From IMG/VR virus record IMGVR_UViG_3300008255_000137, positions 3,502-67,501 of that record: a stretch of DNA of 64,000 nucleotides; one strand, written 5' to 3'. This stretch comes from a virus. Its lineage: Duplodnaviria > Caudoviricetes. Below, one piece after another: positions 12,495-28,815 of the stretch (position 1 is its first letter; every line of letters begins with the position of its first letter). The notes below the pieces were generated by a model that was not told the DNA's origin, did not search any database, and was given only the letters and a program-made list of their open reading frames with translations. The position numbers and the translations under genes were made by a program.

Positions 12495-12688
12495 TCCTTT
12501 TCCTCAATTTGTTCCTCACACTCCCCAACACAATAGGGACAAGATTCTCTCGTAGAATCAAACTCACATTTATGAATTAAACATTTGCAAATTCTTTCTT
12601 CTCTCAAAACAATCCAGAAATGACTTTTGTCTTCAAGCTTTTCCTGATTTATCCGAGTATAAATTGAATGCAACAAAGGTTCTTTCAT
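12449..12688 (-). CDS. Small Cys-containing hypothetical protein
   Basis: CxxHxC...CPYC; coupled to queE. Confidence 0.5.
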   Translation of the reverse strand: MKEPLLHSIYTRINQEKLEDKSHFWIVLREERICKCLIHKCEFDSTRESCPYCVGECEEQIEEKDWLKEKIQLKKEEEH

Positions 12689-13422
12689 TAATGTTCCTCC
12701 ACCTTTCCTTTCTTTTTAAAGTAAATTTCAGGCCAGATATACTTATGAATCTGTAAATTAAATACGGCAAAAACATTATCTCTCAACATCCAGTTGGCAA
12801 GAACGCTCGGCCCTCCCCTTCCTCCCCTTCCCCTTTTCAGTGGAATCATCGGAGAAAAAGCCACATTGCAATGTTCGAAATCATCATATTCTTCCATGAC
12901 TTTCAAAGCAAATTGATAGTCCTCCTTGCTCGCGACCACAAACTTCACCCAATCACAAGGACGAAGTTTTCCAAAATTATCTTTGTCCATTTTCCGATGA
13001 GCGCCCGAACTCGGAAGTTTGTAATCCACCACCCAACAATCAGGAGCAACATCTTTCTGCATCGGTATAGGCAAGGAACCATTCGTCTCGACTGAAACCC
13101 TCTTTCCTTCCCGTTTTAACTTCACAATCAATTCCAATAAACCGTCCTTTTGAAATAAGGGCTCCCCACCAGTGATTGTAGCCTTATTGAAAAAGGGATA
13201 ACTATTGTCAACATATCTTAAAAGACTGTTGACCAGCATTCGCTTTCCTTGTCGCTTTCGATGAGCATAAAGCGTATCACAATAAGAGCAAGGAGGATTC
13301 ATATTGCATCCGGCAAAACGAATGAATAAGGTAGGTGCTCCTTGATAGAAACAGTTTACCTCGCCATCAAAACTTCGAAAAGTAGAGTATATCCAAAATA
13401 ACATATCTCTCTCCTTTCTCAA
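12688..13422 (-). CDS. queE: 7-carboxy-7-deazaguanine synthase-like radical SAM protein
   Basis: FDGE...GAPTLFIRFAGCNMNPPCSYCDT, TITGGEPL, VETNGS, DYKLPSSG, KFVV, LQIHKYIW. Confidence 0.88.
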   Translation of the reverse strand: MRKERDMLFWIYSTFRSFDGEVNCFYQGAPTLFIRFAGCNMNPPCSYCDTLYAHRKRQGKRMLVNSLLRYVDNSYPFFNKATITGGEPLFQKDGLLELIVKLKREGKRVSVETNGSLPIPMQKDVAPDCWVVDYKLPSSGAHRKMDKDNFGKLRPCDWVKFVVASKEDYQFALKVMEEYDDFEHCNVAFSPMIPLKRGRGGRGGPSVLANWMLRDNVFAVFNLQIHKYIWPEIYFKKKGKVEEH

Positions 13423-14984
13423 ATATCTTTTTCTTTTCTTCGACTACTTTTGAAATCTGAAAAACTCCAACTCCATTCTGAATCCAATAAAGGATGCCCT
13501 ACTTCCAATTGTTGAAAAACCAAAACCTGTTTCTCCTGATTAAAAAACTTATGCCGATGAGCCACCAGTCCCAGTCGACAAATTCCTTTGATTTTCTCCT
13601 GAGGGGTCTGGTTTATTCCTATCATCACATCTACATGGGCAATCTTCCGAATATCTTCTGCCGTGTCCACTTCGCTCAAATTCTTTTTACTGATAGAAGA
13701 TCGATTGGATTGACTGGCAGTAAAGACAACGCAATGTTTTATTGCGGCCAACTTTTTAAGATTTTTCCAGATGTCATCAATCACTCCTCTCTCAGAAAGT
13801 CCTCGGGAACTCGGAGAAAGAATATCGGCATAATCCACCACAATCACATCTGGAACGACCCCCTCCATATACTCCAAATTGTCAAGCTCCCTTTCAAGAT
13901 CATCCACTGATGCCGTGAAAGCCGGATAACTGACCAACCTCATTTTCCGTTTGAAAACTTTGGTGAAACGAGAAATTTTCTCCTCAATCAATTTCTTACT
14001 TTTACTCACATCAAATTCATCCGATTGAATCCACCAAACAGAGGGCTTAAAATACTTCTCATTTCTACAAACTGCACAGACCGTATGAGATACTCCAGAA
14101 TCAAAAGAATCCAGAACATCTCCATCTTTAGTCAGAATATTACTGTCACTGATCCTATTTTTTCTTTTACAGGAACCATCTTGATTTTCAAGACAATCCA
14201 GAATTGGGAAAAGAATCCGATTTTTATGAGAGGGAATTCCAGCAATCCTCCGATAGATTCTTTCCTCCATCATCTCTAAACTCATCTCCAATGAAACAAA
14301 TAAAACCTTCAGTCCGGAAAACAAAGCCTGAATAGCAATCTCCTGAAGCCAATAGCTCTTGCCGCGCTTCATGGGACCCATGAAAGAAACAAACCAGGTT
14401 CTCTCCAAGTCTCCTATCAACTCCCCAGCTCGGCCAGGAAGAGACAAAAGAGATTCCTTTTCCCTGCTCAAAACTTCTTTAACTCTTTTCGGATCTAAAG
14501 GGTCCACCCAGTTACCCACAATGTTAGAAATTTTTCCATAATTGACTACTTGATTTTCTGCAATATCCACTTTTCCACTGGCAATCAGTCCTAATCCTCT
14601 TTCAAACAACAGATACAAGGATTGTTTCCTAAAGTATTCCTGAGCCTGATCCAGCACATATTGATAGTTGAAAGAACCTTGTTGTTCATACTCCTCAGAT
14701 ATCCGAGAAAGAAAAGAAGCCACAATGTCCTTGTTTTCTTCTCCCAGTTCCTCTTTCTCAGAATTAAAAATATCCTGAATCTGCTTTCCCGGAGCATGAT
14801 GGTATCTCTCATAATAATCCAGAACCCAAGATAAAACCGTTCGAACATACTCGGACTGAATATACTCGGGCTTGTACATTCGGTAAACTTCCCGACAAAA
14901 TTCTGTAGAAACTATTCCCGCAGTGGCTATCTTTTTTTCGACATCCCCCTTGAATACCTTTCTTCCGGCCAGTCGTAAGGACAT
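13419..14984 (-). CDS. dnaB: DnaB-like replicative helicase
   Basis: Walker A GPMKRGKS, VSLEM, VIVVDYADIL, TASQSNR; internal Cys-rich insert. Confidence 0.9.
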   Translation of the reverse strand: MSLRLAGRKVFKGDVEKKIATAGIVSTEFCREVYRMYKPEYIQSEYVRTVLSWVLDYYERYHHAPGKQIQDIFNSEKEELGEENKDIVASFLSRISEEYEQQGSFNYQYVLDQAQEYFRKQSLYLLFERGLGLIASGKVDIAENQVVNYGKISNIVGNWVDPLDPKRVKEVLSREKESLLSLPGRAGELIGDLERTWFVSFMGPMKRGKSYWLQEIAIQALFSGLKVLFVSLEMSLEMMEERIYRRIAGIPSHKNRILFPILDCLENQDGSCKRKNRISDSNILTKDGDVLDSFDSGVSHTVCAVCRNEKYFKPSVWWIQSDEFDVSKSKKLIEEKISRFTKVFKRKMRLVSYPAFTASVDDLERELDNLEYMEGVVPDVIVVDYADILSPSSRGLSERGVIDDIWKNLKKLAAIKHCVVFTASQSNRSSISKKNLSEVDTAEDIRKIAHVDVMIGINQTPQEKIKGICRLGLVAHRHKFFNQEKQVLVFQQLEVGHPLLDSEWSWSFSDFKSSRRKEKDI

Positions 14985-15011: not shown

Positions 15012-16451
15012 TCATTTCCAAGTATCCGACTCATAAATATTAAATCTTGGTAAAGGGGCTCTCTCCTCAAACTCAATCTCCTCCAGTATGATTCCAATCT
15101 TTTTCAGATGGAGGGGAACCCTTGCTTCATAAGTCTTTTCAGAACAGAACCATCCGGCAGTCACAATTCTCCATTGGCCCTTTACATCTTCCCCAACGGC
15201 ATCAAAAACATACTCAACAAGAGTTTCCGGTCGGGTTCGATCTATCGTGATCATCTTTGAGGAATAATCTTTTAAAAATTTTTCAAATCGAATAACTCCT
15301 TTCCTGAGTTTGTTTTCTTCGTCTACCGAAATTTTTGATATTCGCTTTTTCTTTTTGTAAAGATTTCGGAAAGTCCTTAAAACCGTTGGATTGTTAATCT
15401 CAACCCAGTCCCCATATTTATTTTTCAGATCCTCATACTCTTTTCCCACACACTCCTTGAACCATGAATCAAATCCCACATTCACTTTTTTTACCTTCAT
15501 CATTCGAATCAAGTGAGGAGTGAACTTGAAAAAATCTACAATGGAAACTACATATCCCAACTCACTCTGTCCAGATCGGGCATGAACCCAACAATCCTCA
15601 TCGGTAAGAAGTCGATGATAATTGTCCATGGATTTTTTGATTTTGTCTGCGGAATATCTGGAAAGGGCTTTTTGGATAAGCTTTCTGGCTTGATGATAAG
15701 TTTTGGTGGATCGTCTATGTTTGTGCAATGGGGAACCTAAACTTCCCCAATAATCGAAAATAAGATCAACCTCATCTTGAAAGGATTTAAGTCGATCTTT
15801 CATAAGATGGGATTTGTTTTTTTCAGGGGATATTTTTTGAGGGGAGGATAAAACTTTTTTTCTTAATTTAATTTTGATTTTCTTATTCGAAAAGTTTGAT
15901 TCTTTACTGCGATTGAACTTTTCGCCAGAAAAGTTCATCTCTTCAGATAAAAGATTGTTAAATAATTTATTATTTAATAAGATTTTAGATGAAGAGATAT
16001 TATTTATTTTATTATTATATAGAAAATTGTTCTTAATTGACTGACTATGTAACCCATTGTTATTTATAATTTTCTTCTGTTTTCTGAATACAACCGAGGA
16101 GAGTTTGGGAAAGTTAATTCTATAATGATTTCGAGCAGGTATACCTCTTTTCTCCACTTCCAGGATTTTATCTTCGACCAACTTCTGAACTATCTGTGTT
16201 TGCTTATTGTATTTCAGGTGGGTGACTGACTTAATCTGCTGTTTATTTATTGAGAAGAATCCCCGAAAATCAATCCAGTTTCTTCTTCGGTATTCATACC
16301 AACAGGTGGACATGAAGGAGATCCATAAAGCAATATCTACTCCATAATGATCCATGACGGATTGGTTGAGACATATGGAAGGAGAAGTAAAATAATCAAC
16401 TATTTTTACTTCAGAGGAACAATAATTAAAATTAAAAGGGAGTTTACTCAT
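15012..16451 (-). CDS. Putative replication initiator / replisome organiser (N-terminal HTH-like domain)
   Basis: N-terminus resembles phage initiators (FFSINKQQIKSVTHL..QTQIVQKLVEDKILEVEKRGIPARNHYRINF), followed by a low-complexity linker; lies between primase and DnaB. Confidence 0.6.
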   Translation of the reverse strand: MSKLPFNFNYCSSEVKIVDYFTSPSICLNQSVMDHYGVDIALWISFMSTCWYEYRRRNWIDFRGFFSINKQQIKSVTHLKYNKQTQIVQKLVEDKILEVEKRGIPARNHYRINFPKLSSVVFRKQKKIINNNGLHSQSIKNNFLYNNKINNISSSKILLNNKLFNNLLSEEMNFSGEKFNRSKESNFSNKKIKIKLRKKVLSSPQKISPEKNKSHLMKDRLKSFQDEVDLIFDYWGSLGSPLHKHRRSTKTYHQARKLIQKALSRYSADKIKKSMDNYHRLLTDEDCWVHARSGQSELGYVVSIVDFFKFTPHLIRMMKVKKVNVGFDSWFKECVGKEYEDLKNKYGDWVEINNPTVLRTFRNLYKKKKRISKISVDEENKLRKGVIRFEKFLKDYSSKMITIDRTRPETLVEYVFDAVGEDVKGQWRIVTAGWFCSEKTYEARVPLHLKKIGIILEEIEFEERAPLPRFNIYESDTWK

Positions 16452-16615
16452 CTTCCCAAGCTCCTTAATTGGAATGGGGATTTTTATTTATCTCTCCCAA
16501 GCTCATTTTTCCCCAGCTTCCTATTTGTGAACGGAAAAACAGAAGGGAAAGGGAAGAAGTTTTCGATGAAGGAGCTTGGGAGAGCCGCATCAAAGAACTT
16601 CTTCCCATCCTTCCC
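16452..16615 (-). promoter_or_regulatory. Structured 5' leader with an anti-Shine-Dalgarno loop (putative translational switch)
   Basis: Stem 16596-16606/16551-16561 encloses the loop CUCUCCCAAGCUCC, which is complementary to GAGCUUGGGAGAG (16492-16504) and to GGAGCUUGGGAAG abutting the ATG (16452-16464). Confidence 0.65.
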
Positions 16616-16668
16616 ACTCATAGAATAATATCTTTCATAACAAAAAATCAATAAATATCTTTAATTTA

Positions 16669-17706
16669 TTATAGACCTATAGAACTTCTTAATTTTATTA
16701 CTTCTTTTCTCTTTAAATCCGCAGGATCACCCTTAGAAATAAGGACTAATTCTACACGATCAAATAATGGCGAAATTCTTTTAGCCAGCTTTTCCCATTC
16801 GGCAATCGCATCATAATCCGGAAAAAGAAAAACTTCTTTGATATTTCTTTTCAACAACAGATTGATTTGTTCTTTGGTGACTTTGGTTCCCAAAGAAGCC
16901 CCACAGCCCTCTCCGATTCTCCAGCAGTCAAAAATCCCTTCCACCAAGATTATTTTTTCTTTGACTGAATCAATGTTGTAAATAAGATGTTTGGCCGGAA
17001 GAACAGAAAGTTCCTCTGGATGATTTTTATAGGGCTGAATTGCTTTTCCAGTAATGTCCCTTCCAACAAAAGTCATTATTCGATGATTTAAAAAAACAGG
17101 AATTACTATTCTGAATTTATAAAAACCGAAATTAGTTCCGGCTCTCAATTTATATTTCAGAATGGTTTTATGAGGATCAAACTTTCTTTTTTTCAGATAA
17201 TGGAGATGAGATTTAGGGAATTCTGAAACTACCCCTTTGGGCCACTCTATTTTCCCTTGAAAAACCGCTCTATCTTCGTTTTTAGCAGGGTTTTTTCTGA
17301 AAGAGGATATCTGATATGGGTCTGAATAAATATCCCTTTTAAACGCCTTTAAAACGAGTCGAGCCTGATACTCACTACAAGATTCAATCTCCCGAATCAA
17401 TCGGACAATCGAGCCTTTGGTTCCACAGATCCAACAGGAAATCATTTTACTGGTCAGATTGATTCCCAGATGATTTGAGTGATCCTGACAGAAAGGACAT
17501 TGGATATTGATCCATCCCCGGGTCACATTCTTTCCAGAATCAAAGTATTCTATGTTCCGATCTTGAAGATAGGCAATGGGATCAAACCATTCCAGATCTA
17601 ACTCTGAAGAGGGCTCAGAAATCATAGACCAACCCGGGGGAGGAGGACCCCACAAATCTATGATTTTGCGGGTCTGAGCCCTCTCCACAATCAAATCTAC
17701 AACCAA
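16669..17706 (-). CDS. dnaG: DNA primase (zinc finger + TOPRIM)
   Basis: CPFCQDHSNH..CWICG; ILVEGIFD; FPDYD. Confidence 0.9.
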   Translation of the reverse strand: MVVDLIVERAQTRKIIDLWGPPPPGWSMISEPSSELDLEWFDPIAYLQDRNIEYFDSGKNVTRGWINIQCPFCQDHSNHLGINLTSKMISCWICGTKGSIVRLIREIESCSEYQARLVLKAFKRDIYSDPYQISSFRKNPAKNEDRAVFQGKIEWPKGVVSEFPKSHLHYLKKRKFDPHKTILKYKLRAGTNFGFYKFRIVIPVFLNHRIMTFVGRDITGKAIQPYKNHPEELSVLPAKHLIYNIDSVKEKIILVEGIFDCWRIGEGCGASLGTKVTKEQINLLLKRNIKEVFLFPDYDAIAEWEKLAKRISPLFDRVELVLISKGDPADLKRKEVIKLRSSIGL

Positions 17707-19046
17707 TTTTGCTTGACATAAATACTCAATCGAATAATGGCATGCTGAGAAAGATACTTGTAAGGATCTAAAAAATCCACAATCTCCACTTTACTTTTGG
17801 TTTTTGTTTTTCGGGAACCCCTTCCAATGACCTGAAGAGTGGCTATTTCCGATTTACCGGAGGAAGCATTGATGACGCAATCCAAAGAAGGAACATCCAC
17901 CCCCTCCTTCCAAACGGCGGTACAGATAACCATCTTTATTTTCTTCTTGATCAGGGCCTTTCGGACTTGCTCCCGGACATTTCCTTCTGTACTTCCTTGA
18001 ATAAAAAGATGCTCCATCTGGAAAATCTCTTTTCCCATTTCCTGTAAAATCTCTCCATGCTCAATCTCCTTGACCAGAACCAACACACTTTTCCCTTCTC
18101 GAATTCTTGAAGCGCATAAAGAAAGAATCAGTCGATTGCGAACTCTATTTTCAACAATTCCTTTCTGGTAGATATCAGAGTATCTTTTCAACTCAGATAT
18201 CTGACTCATTGGAGATACGGAAACCAGAGTAATAAAGGGCTTTGCCGTAAAGCCCTCCCGAATTCCATCTTCCGATTTGAACTCACCTATTATCGGTCCT
18301 AAGCAGCCCTCAATAGTCATTCGGGCTTCTTCTTTTTCAGGAAGAGTGGCGGTGAATCCAATCCTTATCGGAGATTCATTCTGAAGCATAAACTTAAAAT
18401 ATTGAGTATCCGTTCCTGACAGATGATGAACTTCATCAATTATAGTAATATCAAATTGCTTTTTTAGGGGAATGGACACCATGGATTTAATAGAAGCCAC
18501 TACAATTCTGGAAGAAACGTCTTTCTTTCCTTCCCCAACAAAACCAACATCTTTAAATTTAAACTTTATAAGTTCATCATAGGTTTGTTTTAAAATAGAA
18601 AGAGAATGACACAAAAAAAGAATTCTCCGCTTGGGAAACATGGACATGATTCCCATAGCAATGACCGTCTTTCCTGATCCGGTTGGGGAAACGATCACCC
18701 CTCTTTGTTTTGCTGTGGCCTTCTGAATCAAATCTATTTGATAAGGACGAAAAGCAATTCCAGAAATTTCCGGATGATCCTTTTCGGGAAGATCATATTT
18801 TTCTTCTGGCTCTATTTCAATAAACAGATTTTGGTTTTTACAATGCTGAATCACTCGGGGCAAAAAACCACACAAAAAAAGGCCCCGTTTTCTGTCCATG
18901 AAGTAGGAGATGGATTCCTTTGTTTCTCCCCCACCCCACCGGTTTCGTTTGAACCAGTAGGATTTATAACGGAGAGAATCTTTCATCAAAGGAATGTCTT
19001 CCTTCCTCACCTGACAGAAAACGGGGCTTAGATATTTAATCTTCAA
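17697..19046 (-). CDS. SF2 DEAH-box helicase (UvsW-like)
   Basis: SPTGSGKT, IDEVHH, GFTAT, EGVDVPSL, QVIGRGSR. Confidence 0.9.
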   Translation of the reverse strand: MKIKYLSPVFCQVRKEDIPLMKDSLRYKSYWFKRNRWGGGETKESISYFMDRKRGLFLCGFLPRVIQHCKNQNLFIEIEPEEKYDLPEKDHPEISGIAFRPYQIDLIQKATAKQRGVIVSPTGSGKTVIAMGIMSMFPKRRILFLCHSLSILKQTYDELIKFKFKDVGFVGEGKKDVSSRIVVASIKSMVSIPLKKQFDITIIDEVHHLSGTDTQYFKFMLQNESPIRIGFTATLPEKEEARMTIEGCLGPIIGEFKSEDGIREGFTAKPFITLVSVSPMSQISELKRYSDIYQKGIVENRVRNRLILSLCASRIREGKSVLVLVKEIEHGEILQEMGKEIFQMEHLFIQGSTEGNVREQVRKALIKKKIKMVICTAVWKEGVDVPSLDCVINASSGKSEIATLQVIGRGSRKTKTKSKVEIVDFLDPYKYLSQHAIIRLSIYVKQNWL

Positions 19047-27448: not shown

Positions 27449-27661
27449 TTAGTAATCCTCTTTTCCATATTGTCCCGCCCCTCTGCCACCATCAACTGGG
27501 TCCATCGGTCCCATTGTCGGTTTGCGCGAGATCCATGCGTCTAAGGTAAGATACTCATTCCCATTATCGTCATACCCCTCGCAATATAAAAAAGCTAATT
27601 CCTCCTCTTGCAATCTGGCCATTGTGATCCCTTTGGATTCCGCGTATTCTTTTTTTGTCAT
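27449..27661 (-). CDS. Hypothetical early protein (start reassigned to MTKKEY)
   Basis: AAGGAGAAGG RBS before the ATG at 27661. Confidence 0.55.
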   Translation of the reverse strand: MTKKEYAESKGITMARLQEEELAFLYCEGYDDNGNEYLTLDAWISRKPTMGPMDPVDGGRGAGQYGKEDY

Positions 27662-28524
27662 TTTCCTTCTCCTTTTTTGAGTTGATTGAAAATTCAATTC
27701 AAACCACAAAATGGTTTCAACTGAAATCTCAATCTCAGAAAATGGGTTTACAAAATCCATTGGCAGTTTCGCCACATCGTCAAACCACTCCGGGCCACCA
27801 TCTCATGTGGGAGTGACTGTCCTGTATTTCGGCCCGGTTCTCATCCCTCGTGAATCCCTGATCTAATTATTCAGATCCAAGGGCACTTAATCGATCCACC
27901 TCCAGGTTCTCCAGGCCCGGAGTTGCTTTTTTTAATTTGCGGATCTTTGGGAGGCCGATACCCTGGTATTTCCAGGATCACTTTTGAAAAATTATTTTTA
28001 AGAGGTTTTTTGGGCTTCACTCGCTCCGGCCCTTTTGCCCTGCCGGTCTTAAATCTAATTTTTAAAAGATCTGACTTCTATATATATTACAATGATCAAT
28101 TGGTAAAACCCGGAAAACTTGAATTATTCATTATAATAAGGGATTTTTTCATTTCGGAAAATCAAGGGAACAAAAAGTCTAATAAATTCAATGAATTATA
28201 AATTGAAAAAAAAGTTGAAAAAAGATGCTTGTTTTTTCATAGATTTTCAAGGTTTTCTTTGATTTTTAAAACAGAAGGAAGGAAAAATCCAATGAATTTA
28301 ATGAGTTAGACTATTATAAAAAATTTTAAAATTTTATTTTTTGAAAATTGAAAAAACAGGGGAAATGATCCCGGGAAATAGCCTAACCTATTGAAATCAT
28401 TAGAACCAAGAAGAAACTCCTTTTAAATGCTTTAAAATCGATTTTAAGGGACTTTTGTTGAAAACCTATATCAGATTATACCAAAGAAAAGATCGCTCGT
28501 CCTGAATGATTTTAGAGCGGTTTT
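27662..28524. other. Longest apparently non-coding region (GC-richer left half, very AT-rich right half); candidate control region, origin or terminus
   Basis: No credible ORF; lies at the boundary between late and early genes. Confidence 0.45.
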
Positions 28525-28815
28525 TCACCATTTTCGAACCGTCCCATAATGCCGAAACCACTCCTCCAGGACCAGTCGTTTCCGGCGCTTTGTTTTGACC
28601 ACCAGAACATACACCAGATTATCCTCATCAATCAATAATCGCTGAAACCCCCTGACCCCACAACGATGTATTTCTACGGTCCCATCATGAGTCAATTTCG
28701 AGGCCTGTTTCAAAAACTCAGCGGTTATTTGTTCGGTGGTAGTACTTCTCCTGAAAAGCTTTCGGATGAGTTGTTTGAGGATTCCAATTTTGTTTTTGAT
28801 AAACTCTCGAACCAT
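28525..28815 (-). CDS. Hypothetical protein
   Basis: 96-aa ORF overlapping the exonuclease 3' end. Confidence 0.45.
   Translation of the reverse strand: MVREFIKNKIGILKQLIRKLFRRSTTTEQITAEFLKQASKLTHDGTVEIHRCGVRGFQRLLIDEDNLVYVLVVKTKRRKRLVLEEWFRHYGTVRKW

Follow-up and report, generated by a model that had tools for sequence, protein, structure and literature searches.

A Leader Hairpin Loop With Two Alternative Partners, the Ribosome-Binding Site and a Decoy Copy of It, Before a Phage Replication-Initiator-Like Gene

Introduction

Whether a DNA phage may govern the synthesis of its replication initiator through the leader of the messenger RNA (mRNA) itself is the question raised by a locus in the IMG/VR virus record IMGVR_UViG_3300008255_000137 (67.5 kilobases (kb), completeness estimate ∼49%), of which a part of 64,000 nucleotides (nt), hereafter the window, was analyzed. 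Initiators limit the rate of replication, and leader RNAs are a known means of their control in plasmids; to our knowledge, far fewer cases of leader-RNA control of an initiator have been described in DNA phages. The minus strand carries nearly all genes of the window and, read on that strand, a 217-nt gap separates a primase gene from a gene encoding a replication-initiator-like protein. This gap should be annotated as a structured leader rather than as a spacer or as spurious small open reading frames (ORFs). It contains a hairpin whose apical loop is complementary both to the ribosome-binding site (RBS) of the initiator-like gene and to a decoy copy of that site, and the 5′ leader of the initiator mRNA probably, though far from certainly, controls its own translation through pairing of this loop, with the decoy competing for it.

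The Hairpin Loop and Its Two Targets

The leader and the gene that follows it comprise the elements below, given in the order in which they would be transcribed.

16646..16651, minus strand: TTGATT, a −35-like element, read directly
16622..16627, minus strand: TATTCT, a −10-like element 18 nt after TTGATT, read directly; with it a candidate promoter for the leader
16542..16619, minus strand: leader hairpin of 27 base pairs (bp)
16569..16587, minus strand: 19-nt apical loop CGGCUCUCCCAAGCUCCUU, an anti-Shine-Dalgarno element
16535..16539, minus strand: run of five U (UGUUUUUCC), a terminator-like tail 2 nt past the hairpin, read directly
16465..16506, minus strand: possible 13-codon upstream ORF MSLGEINKNPHSN
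16492..16504, minus strand: decoy GAGCUUGGGAGAG
16454..16466, minus strand: RBS copy AAGGAGCUUGGGA, ending 2 nt before the AUG at 16451
15012-16451, minus strand: replication-initiator-like gene (479 amino acids (aa)), between the primase and DnaB-like helicase genes

The hairpin is found by RNAfold in both the minimum free energy (MFE) and the centroid fold, at about −33 kcal/mol, and consists of segments of 3, 6, 11, and 7 pairs with four G-U pairs in total. Its core is a perfect 11-bp stem formed by GGGAAGAAGUU (16606-16596) and AACUUCUUCCC (16561-16551), followed after a one-base bulge at C16595 by a 7-bp stem of UUUGAUG (16594-16588) with CAUCGAA (16568-16562), which includes one G-U pair. 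These two stems and the 19-nt loop had been recognized in the preliminary description of this DNA and can be read directly from the sequence; RNAfold extends them by 6+3 outer pairs to 16619-16542. The loop faces two targets in overlapping registers, its bases 16581-16569 being complementary to the RBS and its bases 16584-16572 to the decoy. The decoy (16504-16492) is complementary to the loop at 13/13 positions, as had been claimed, and decoy and loop are the sole two exact copies of this sequence in the 64 kb, in inverted orientation. The RBS copy AAGGAGCUUGGGA, which comprises the Shine-Dalgarno (SD) sequence and the spacer of the initiator gene, forms 13 contiguous Watson-Crick pairs with the loop segment UCCCAAGCUCCUU (16581-16569), so that the pairing over the SD given in the preliminary description stands, while its count of 11 contiguous pairs falls short of the actual one. 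The initiation site has an AAGGAG SD with an AUG start, and the decoy region is a degenerate copy of this initiation region, the same at 21/25 positions and with AUA in place of the AUG.

The upstream ORF has a GGGGA 5 nt ahead of its AUG, which overlaps the decoy, and its UAA stop abuts the GGAG of the real RBS. A recurring phage promoter of the form TTGATT..GAAAGA was considered and rejected, as its remaining matches fall within genes.

Pairing in Excess of Chance

The complementarity between loop and RBS exceeds what chance would supply. None of 2000 shuffles of the upstream sequence yielded 13 Watson-Crick pairs to the RBS segment, and the energy of the loop-RBS duplex (−25.2 kcal/mol) was reached by 0/3000 shuffles of the loop, as was that of the loop with the decoy-bearing region in the window (−26.6 kcal/mol, 0/3000). 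When the loop was paired with 62 gene starts of the window, its own gene gave the best energy (−25.2 kcal/mol), the runner-up reaching −17.7 kcal/mol against a mean of −9.3 and a standard deviation of 4.2. The initiator gene ranks second among 61 genes when the RBS is compared with anything up to 260 nt upstream, and in a scan of sliding 20-mers the apical loop is the top upstream partner of the RBS segment.

Folding energies of the whole leader are less telling. Their z-scores are weak, at −1.9 in the window and −2.7 and −0.7 in two related loci introduced below (L002 and L004, respectively), because the purine and pyrimidine tracts of the leader fold well after shuffling too, and the specific pairings were therefore tested instead. 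Comparison of the hairpin energy on the sense and antisense strands does not discriminate between them.

Conservation in Related Loci

The protein family of the initiator-like gene has 1819 representatives at expectation values (E) up to 0.001. Relatives that carry the leader belong to two independent close clusters only in the databases searched: P0002 (59% protein identity), found on loci L002 and L003, which are identical across the 351 nt read around the leader, and P0003 (44% protein identity), found on locus L004. With the 2.9-kb region as query, BLAST found no match among 50,697 phage records, nor did searches of viral contigs and GTDB genomes for relatives of the region, and a search of metagenome contigs returned two distant loci only.

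L002 and L004 keep the order hairpin loop, decoy, RBS in sequences that differ from that of the window, the three leaders being ∼61% alike in a gapped alignment. Both have a conserved TTGATT, which is invariant in the three-leader alignment, a hairpin with arms of the GGGAAAGG/CCUUUCCC type, a large apical loop, and a U-rich tail. In L002, TTGATT is followed after 17 nt by TATTTT, and AT-rich hexamers are similarly spaced in the relatives. The corresponding elements of the two loci are as follows.

L002: loop UGACUGGAGUCC, decoy GACUCCAGU, RBS GGACUCUAGUCA
L004: loop UUGGACUCCUUGA, decoy UCAAGGAAUCC, RBS UCAAGGAGUUCAG

Both loop pairings are thus kept in two relatives despite the change of sequence, which had been named at the outset as one of the points on which the proposal would stand or fall. 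The loop-RBS pairing amounts to 12-13 pairs in 3/3 loci, in each of which the apical loop pairs better with the RBS segment than any other upstream sequence, with energies of −25.2 (window), −21.9 (L002), and −18.7 kcal/mol (L004) that were reached by 0/3000 loop shuffles each. In a column table anchored on the GGA of the SD, offsets +3 to +10 vary among the loci with pairing kept, and in six loop-RBS columns both sides have changed; as regards the covariation check in related phages suggested earlier, this is compensatory change at n=3 loci. Pairing a loop with the RBS of another locus gives only −6.8 to −14.5 kcal/mol. The loop-decoy pairing follows the same pattern in the cross-locus comparison, with cognate energies of −27.5, −16.3, and −15.7 kcal/mol against non-cognate values of −8.0 to −14.5 kcal/mol, and the decoy resembles the initiation region of its own locus in 3/3 loci, tracking the RBS of that locus.

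Coding potential within the leader is not conserved in this way. At the decoy, L002 has unrelated short ORFs that end well upstream of the RBS, and L004 has only an in-frame GUG in place of the upstream ORF of the window. This GUG, at position 171 of L004 (171-224) and past the decoy, shares its reading frame with the GUG annotated as the start at 222, no stop intervening, and the L004 decoy could be a second, upstream initiation site that gives rise to a form 17 residues longer. TTG-start ORFs that run across the leader in all three loci (“MIF..”; 55, 47, and 31 aa) were rejected as genes because they are without an SD, are of unequal length, and are alike only at the conserved promoter and pyrimidine-arm DNA. 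On the opposite strand, the hairpin base has a promoter-like TTCCCA-16 nt-(A/T)ATAAT (window +16602-16629; L002 minus strand 3775-3748), directed not at the leader but toward the 3′ end of the primase gene.

No credible Rfam match was found for the leader of the window or for those of five relatives. In window 16300-16800 the C4 model in particular gave none with E up to 1, and L004 and the loci of more distant relatives gave none to any family with an E limit of 0.1. The leader element is real and conserved, and has no match in Rfam.

Leaders of more distant homologs contain other structures. Those of L009 (2085-2325) and L014 (385-591) share a different conserved RNA element, made up of GGGGGAUGCC..ACGGGGAGGUUAAG, an 8-bp hairpin with a co-varying stem, and, after it, CAAUCCC..AUAACCU..CGGAGGU; a small ORF comes next, and the element has no Rfam match. 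The UAACCU of this element is able to pair with either copy of GGAGGUUA. The stop of the small ORF overlaps the initiator AUG as AUGA in L009, and in L014 the small ORF extends ∼12 nt beyond the initiator AUG. In L012 (427-692), the leader has a 35-bp hairpin followed by a U tract. The 5′ arm of this hairpin is traversed by a 32-codon ORF, whose SD (AAAAGGAAGGAU) has its complement in the hairpin loop, AUCCUUCCUUUU, so that the idea of an anti-SD loop appears from the sequence to recur there, directed at an upstream ORF instead.

Energetics and a Proposed Mechanism

Pairing of an apical loop with either target would create a pseudoknot, the energy of which was estimated crudely by folding the rest of the RNA with both segments single-stranded and adding the duplex energy. 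By this estimate, both pseudoknotted states lie 8-20 kcal/mol under the nested MFE fold in 3/3 loci. Nested folds in which the hairpin is melted were 2.5-8 kcal/mol worse than the nested MFE fold and were rejected in favor of loop pairing. The decoy state is favored in the window (−77.5 vs. −69.0), and the RBS state in L002 and L004, again as crude estimates. G-U pairs in the loop-RBS helices of L002 and L004 make these ∼4 kcal/mol better as sense than as antisense RNA.

Taken together, the evidence favors a conserved RNA-RNA interaction, most likely one that masks the RBS to repress translation of the initiator. In the proposed mechanism, the leader would be transcribed as the 5′ end of the initiator mRNA and its 5′-end hairpin would display the anti-SD in the 19-nt loop. 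The off state would be the loop-RBS pairing, because 12-13 pairs from the SD across the spacer to the start codon should block 30S binding; in the on state, the decoy would take the loop within the same molecule and leave the real RBS free. Because the decoy is transcribed before the RBS, a kinetic reading of the two states is likeliest, as in the MS2 maturation gene (PMC4615214) and hok mRNA (PMC9841398), both tested cases in which one anti-SD has two competing partners. The decoy, being made first, would hold the loop on young transcripts and permit some initiator synthesis, and later pairing of the loop with the RBS would silence the message, so that young transcripts would be open and older ones closed. 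It is quite unlikely, but worth stating, that the leader acts as a cotranscriptional timer, in which the decoy would hold the loop only as long as the message is nascent and tethered to DNA, and release would pass the loop to the RBS and silence the message. If such a timer exists, the initiator would be made only beside its own template, whose putative origin (a conserved palindrome described below) lies in the same gene, and the leader would be an RNA-encoded way to confine the initiator to the DNA copy that encodes it and to limit its amount per genome.

Several observations weigh against translational control by this leader, or against parts of it. The TTGATT-18 nt-TATTCT element pointed out in the preliminary description is present, though it matches the sigma-70 consensus at only 8/12 positions, under the scan threshold, and would be a weak promoter; its TTGATT motif is absent from the other intergenic sites of the window. 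The pseudoknot energies carry no penalty for a 12-13-bp helix threaded through a 17-20-nt loop, and the identity of the more stable state differs among the loci and is not conserved. The decoy is the less secure of the two partners. Against shuffles of the loop, its pairing is marginal in L002 (235/3000, p ∼0.08) and stronger in L004 (16/3000, p 0.005), where a C-A mismatch interrupts the loop-decoy helix. The antisense versions of the loop-decoy helices are slightly the better ones, and the argument that the decoy acts as RNA is therefore drawn only from its position and its co-variation. Three independent sequences make a formal covariation test impossible. Among more distant homologs, the leaders of L009, L012, L013, and L014 have no loop-RBS match, and L005-L008, L010, and L011 are without any leader, because of which the loop-decoy-RBS design appears, on these sequences, to be confined to one small close clade.

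Alternative Explanations

The likeliest alternative to control within one molecule, though itself unlikely, is that termination at the U tract, or RNase III-type cutting of the long stem, sets the hairpin free as a small RNA, which acts on other initiator messages. The level of such an RNA would rise with the number of phage genomes and it would shut the RBS of read-through messages, giving negative feedback on replication, with the decoy serving to neutralize the loop carried by each read-through message itself. The candidate promoter directly ahead of the hairpin and the U run behind it fit this model, as do tail scores of 4.84 in L002 and, at a borderline value, 2.71 in the window, and L012 and L013 also have leaders with a long hairpin and a U tract before the gene. 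There are precedents as well, in that IsrK occurs both as a terminated small RNA and as the 5′ portion of the mRNA that it targets (PMC4825925), and the P4 CI and P1/P7 c4 RNAs are cut from the transcripts that they regulate (PMC4825925, PMC5320573). However, the U tract of L004 is poorly placed, inside the outer helix (score 0.93), and an intrinsic terminator would not normally have so long a stem or so large a loop, both being far above the typical size; a simple terminator scan passes over the hairpin and U5 run of the window because the loop exceeds 8 nt. The hairpin matches neither Rfam C4 nor another Rfam family, and intramolecular pairing should outcompete intermolecular pairing unless the decoy truly blocks the loop. 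A less likely model makes an unseen antisense RNA the real regulator, as in pSK41, pT181, and IncI replicons; by binding the decoy or the hairpin, this RNA would determine whether the loop can reach the RBS, with the decoy as a “pre-emptor.” RepA_N, pT181, and IncI replicons do aim an antisense RNA at the leader ∼100 nt before the start (PMC5703833, PMC4705826), and promoter-like sites occur on the opposite strand within the first codons of the window gene (+16366-16393, 10/12; +16405-16432, 9/12) and in L004 (276 to 247), where an antisense-oriented terminator-like hairpin (66 to 51) lies just past the main hairpin. The search for an antisense RNA nevertheless came to nothing more than this: the promoter-like matches are at or near chance level in AT-rich DNA, the equivalent place in L002 has no such site, no U tract follows the main hairpin on the antisense strand in the window, and no feature of an antisense gene is conserved across the three loci.

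The two remaining explanations are unlikely, and each is given less weight than an antisense RNA. One holds that the leader has no regulatory function, the hairpin being a terminator of the helicase-primase operon or a 5′-end stabilizer and the matches being leftovers of a duplication of the RBS region. The decoy clearly does duplicate the initiation region, and purine- and pyrimidine-rich stem arms inflate the predicted structure, in keeping with leader z-scores of −1.9 in the window and −0.7 in L004; but neutral leftovers would decay independently, and three leaders that are only ∼61% alike keep 12-13 lineage-specific pairs. The other, which is the least probable of all, treats the three copies of the motif as DNA sites for a protein, for autorepression by the initiator or as origin iterons, with the RNA complementarity as a by-product. 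Initiators often bind repeats near their own genes, and such sites can change along with the protein; the copies differ by transitions only, and the sense strand gives the loop-decoy match no advantage over the antisense strand. Two facts in 3/3 loci do not follow from a DNA model, however: the inverted copy falls exactly in the apical loop, and one direct copy over the SD. The spacing of the copies varies (40, 95, and 54 nt). Neither the gene nor its surroundings contain iteron arrays or additional copies, near-matches elsewhere being at chance level, and the likely origin is the ∼60-bp palindrome within the gene, the sequence of which is unrelated. Moreover, the N-terminal DNA-binding domain is well conserved between loci with quite different motifs.

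Comparison With Known Systems

Sequestration of an SD by an anti-SD is a known principle, and what is unusual here is the display of the anti-SD in a loop and the layout with a decoy. One close parallel in mechanism is the leader of the MS2 maturation gene, in which an upstream complementary sequence (UCS) pairs with the SD and a metastable hairpin is involved (PMC4615214). As in the present leader, an upstream anti-SD in MS2 and other leviviruses pairs with the SD at long distance, which in MS2 silences the gene, and the pairing is conserved through sequence change (PMC4615214). An earlier, second pairing in MS2 briefly holds the anti-SD so that only young RNA is translated, and may be likened to the decoy (PMC4615214). 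As regards a delay of the levivirus kind, the decoy is placed between loop and RBS in 3/3 loci, and the RBS state is the more stable one in L002 and L004 but not in the window. MS2 differs in being an RNA phage, in that its pairing is nested in a cloverleaf and spans 7 nt as against 12-13 here, and in that its anti-SD is not in a hairpin loop and its transient partner is no copy of the initiation region; the likeness is one of mechanism only, without sequence or structural homology. A second parallel is the hok mRNA of plasmid R1, the elements of which include tac, ucb, the mok SD, and fbi (PMC9841398). There, the anti-SD ucb has two mutually exclusive partners, a real SD and the SD-like tac, its choice of partner decides translatability, and metastable structures act during transcription (PMC9841398). 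In contrast to the present leader, the hok switch is driven by 3′ processing and a 5′-3′ fold-back with the Sok antisense RNA overlaid, the SD mimic lies 5′ of the anti-SD, and the gene encodes a toxin rather than a replication protein.

The preliminary description had likened the leader to those of IncI/IncB plasmids. In the IncI-alpha, IncB, and IncL/M group (ColIb-P9 repZ-repY-Inc; pMU720), four bases, GGCG with CGCC, pair just upstream of a weak SD, and the resulting pseudoknot activates a GUG start masked by a local hairpin; a leader peptide is essential, and the antisense Inc RNA competes (PMC4705826). The likeness holds insofar as a stem-loop ∼100 nt upstream pairs with the rep initiation region to form a pseudoknot in these plasmids too (PMC4705826). 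A short ORF ahead of the initiator gene in the window likewise ends at the RBS, although this ORF is unconserved. The likeness does not extend to the short activating pairing adjacent to the SD or to the leader peptide. Here 12-13 pairs cover a strong SD itself, and a second target in cis, the decoy, is present. Pairing over a strong SD would therefore be expected to repress, in contrast to the activation seen in IncI-type replicons, and the window leader is not a member of the IncI/IncB-type system.

Phage regulatory RNAs offer a further comparison. The c4 RNA of P1/P7, the CI RNA of P4, and IsrK of Gifsy-1 are encoded in the sense strand of the transcript that they control (PMC5320573, PMC4825925) and, as here, their loop sequences are complementary to two repeated targets, one of which covers the RBS. 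This likeness is one of function only, the window being without an Rfam C4 match. These RNAs differ in having a three-stem fold (Rfam C4), maturation by RNase P to a stable RNA of ∼70-80 nt, and an intermolecular action that serves immunity; CI causes transcription termination, and IsrK activates translation.

The Putatively Regulated Gene and Its Product

The product of the 15012-16451 gene had been described as replication-initiator-like from sequence alone, and this finds support in a match to PHROG 9773 (“replication initiation O-like,” E 5e-5) and in a match to the fold of RepA_N-type initiators. An AlphaFold model built from 37 homologs (mean predicted local distance difference test (pLDDT) 79.7, >90 over residues 30-120) predicts a winged-helix N-terminal domain, an Asn-rich linker disordered at residues 134-224, and a helical C-terminal domain. 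For the modeled N-terminal domain, Foldseek ranks three RepA_N-type plasmid initiators highest, 4pql, 4pt7, and 5kbj (E 2.4e-3 to 7e-3, probability 1.00, target TM ∼0.6 (0.61)). Searches with the protein sequence found no Pfam family at E up to 1, the RepA_N model included, and no match in the PDB. The label “initiator-like” is a fair one. The AUG at 16451 is the likely start of the protein and better than that of the database gene call, which begins 32 codons downstream (447 aa) and leaves out window 16356-16451, because homologs extend across this AUG with a conserved N-terminal KIVD.F..P motif.

Inside the gene, all three close loci have a near-perfect palindrome of ∼60 bp, with arms of 27-30 nt that are 81-89% complementary and a center of TTTAAT..ATTAAA.

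Window 15937-15998: palindrome
L002 4499-4554: palindrome
L004 774-832: palindrome

It sits in AT-rich DNA (24-26% GC in the window) that encodes the Asn-rich disordered linker, and in sequence it bears no relation to the leader motif. By analogy with pSK41 Rep or lambda O, the palindrome is a candidate replication origin within the initiator gene. The analogy to pSK41 extends to the protein, as a fold match suggests the same arrangement of a winged-helix N-terminal domain, a dispensable-looking linker, and a helical C-terminal domain. Origins of the pSK41 type lie in linker-coding DNA (PMC5703833), as does the palindrome in 3/3 loci, and Rep synthesis in pSK41 is controlled in the leader by sequestering of the RBS in an RNA structure (PMC5703833). 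In pSK41, however, an 83-nt antisense RNA induces the RBS-sequestering hairpin, whereas here the anti-SD is built into the leader; the window protein, moreover, is without a Pfam RepA_N match and the replicon is a phage.

Genomic Setting

The initiator-like gene forms part of a replication module with the following genes.

17697-19046: ResIII helicase gene
16669-17706: primase gene
13419-14984: DnaB-like helicase gene

The ResIII helicase gene of the window is uninterrupted, unlike its counterpart in L002 (66-2673), where a ResIII/Helicase_C helicase gene is called as two pieces with weak Hint_2 and Intein_splicing matches, which suggests an intein or similar insertion. The replication modules also contain PTPS (QueD-like), radical-SAM (QueE-like), and DUF5662 genes (window 12688-13422, L002 7092-9354, L005 1729-4004) and, in the same stretches, dGTP_diPhyd_N, Thg1, and PAPS-reductase-like genes. 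This gene set suggests modification of DNA or of nucleotide precursors, of the 7-deazaguanine type, in this phage group. Elsewhere, window 27449-28724 is GC-richer with few good ORFs and shows the top self-complementarity when gene starts are compared with what lies upstream of them (−26.2 and −23.8 kcal/mol), and a structured non-coding region may be present there. A search of the window for tRNA genes with ARAGORN found none.

Significance

The leader described here is a compact, sequence-defined candidate for control of a phage initiator, in which a single loop able to pair with either of two partners, and preserved by compensatory change, stands before a RepA_N-like phage initiator gene. 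If confirmed, it would add a self-contained translational brake, and possibly a timer, that needs neither an antisense gene nor a protein.

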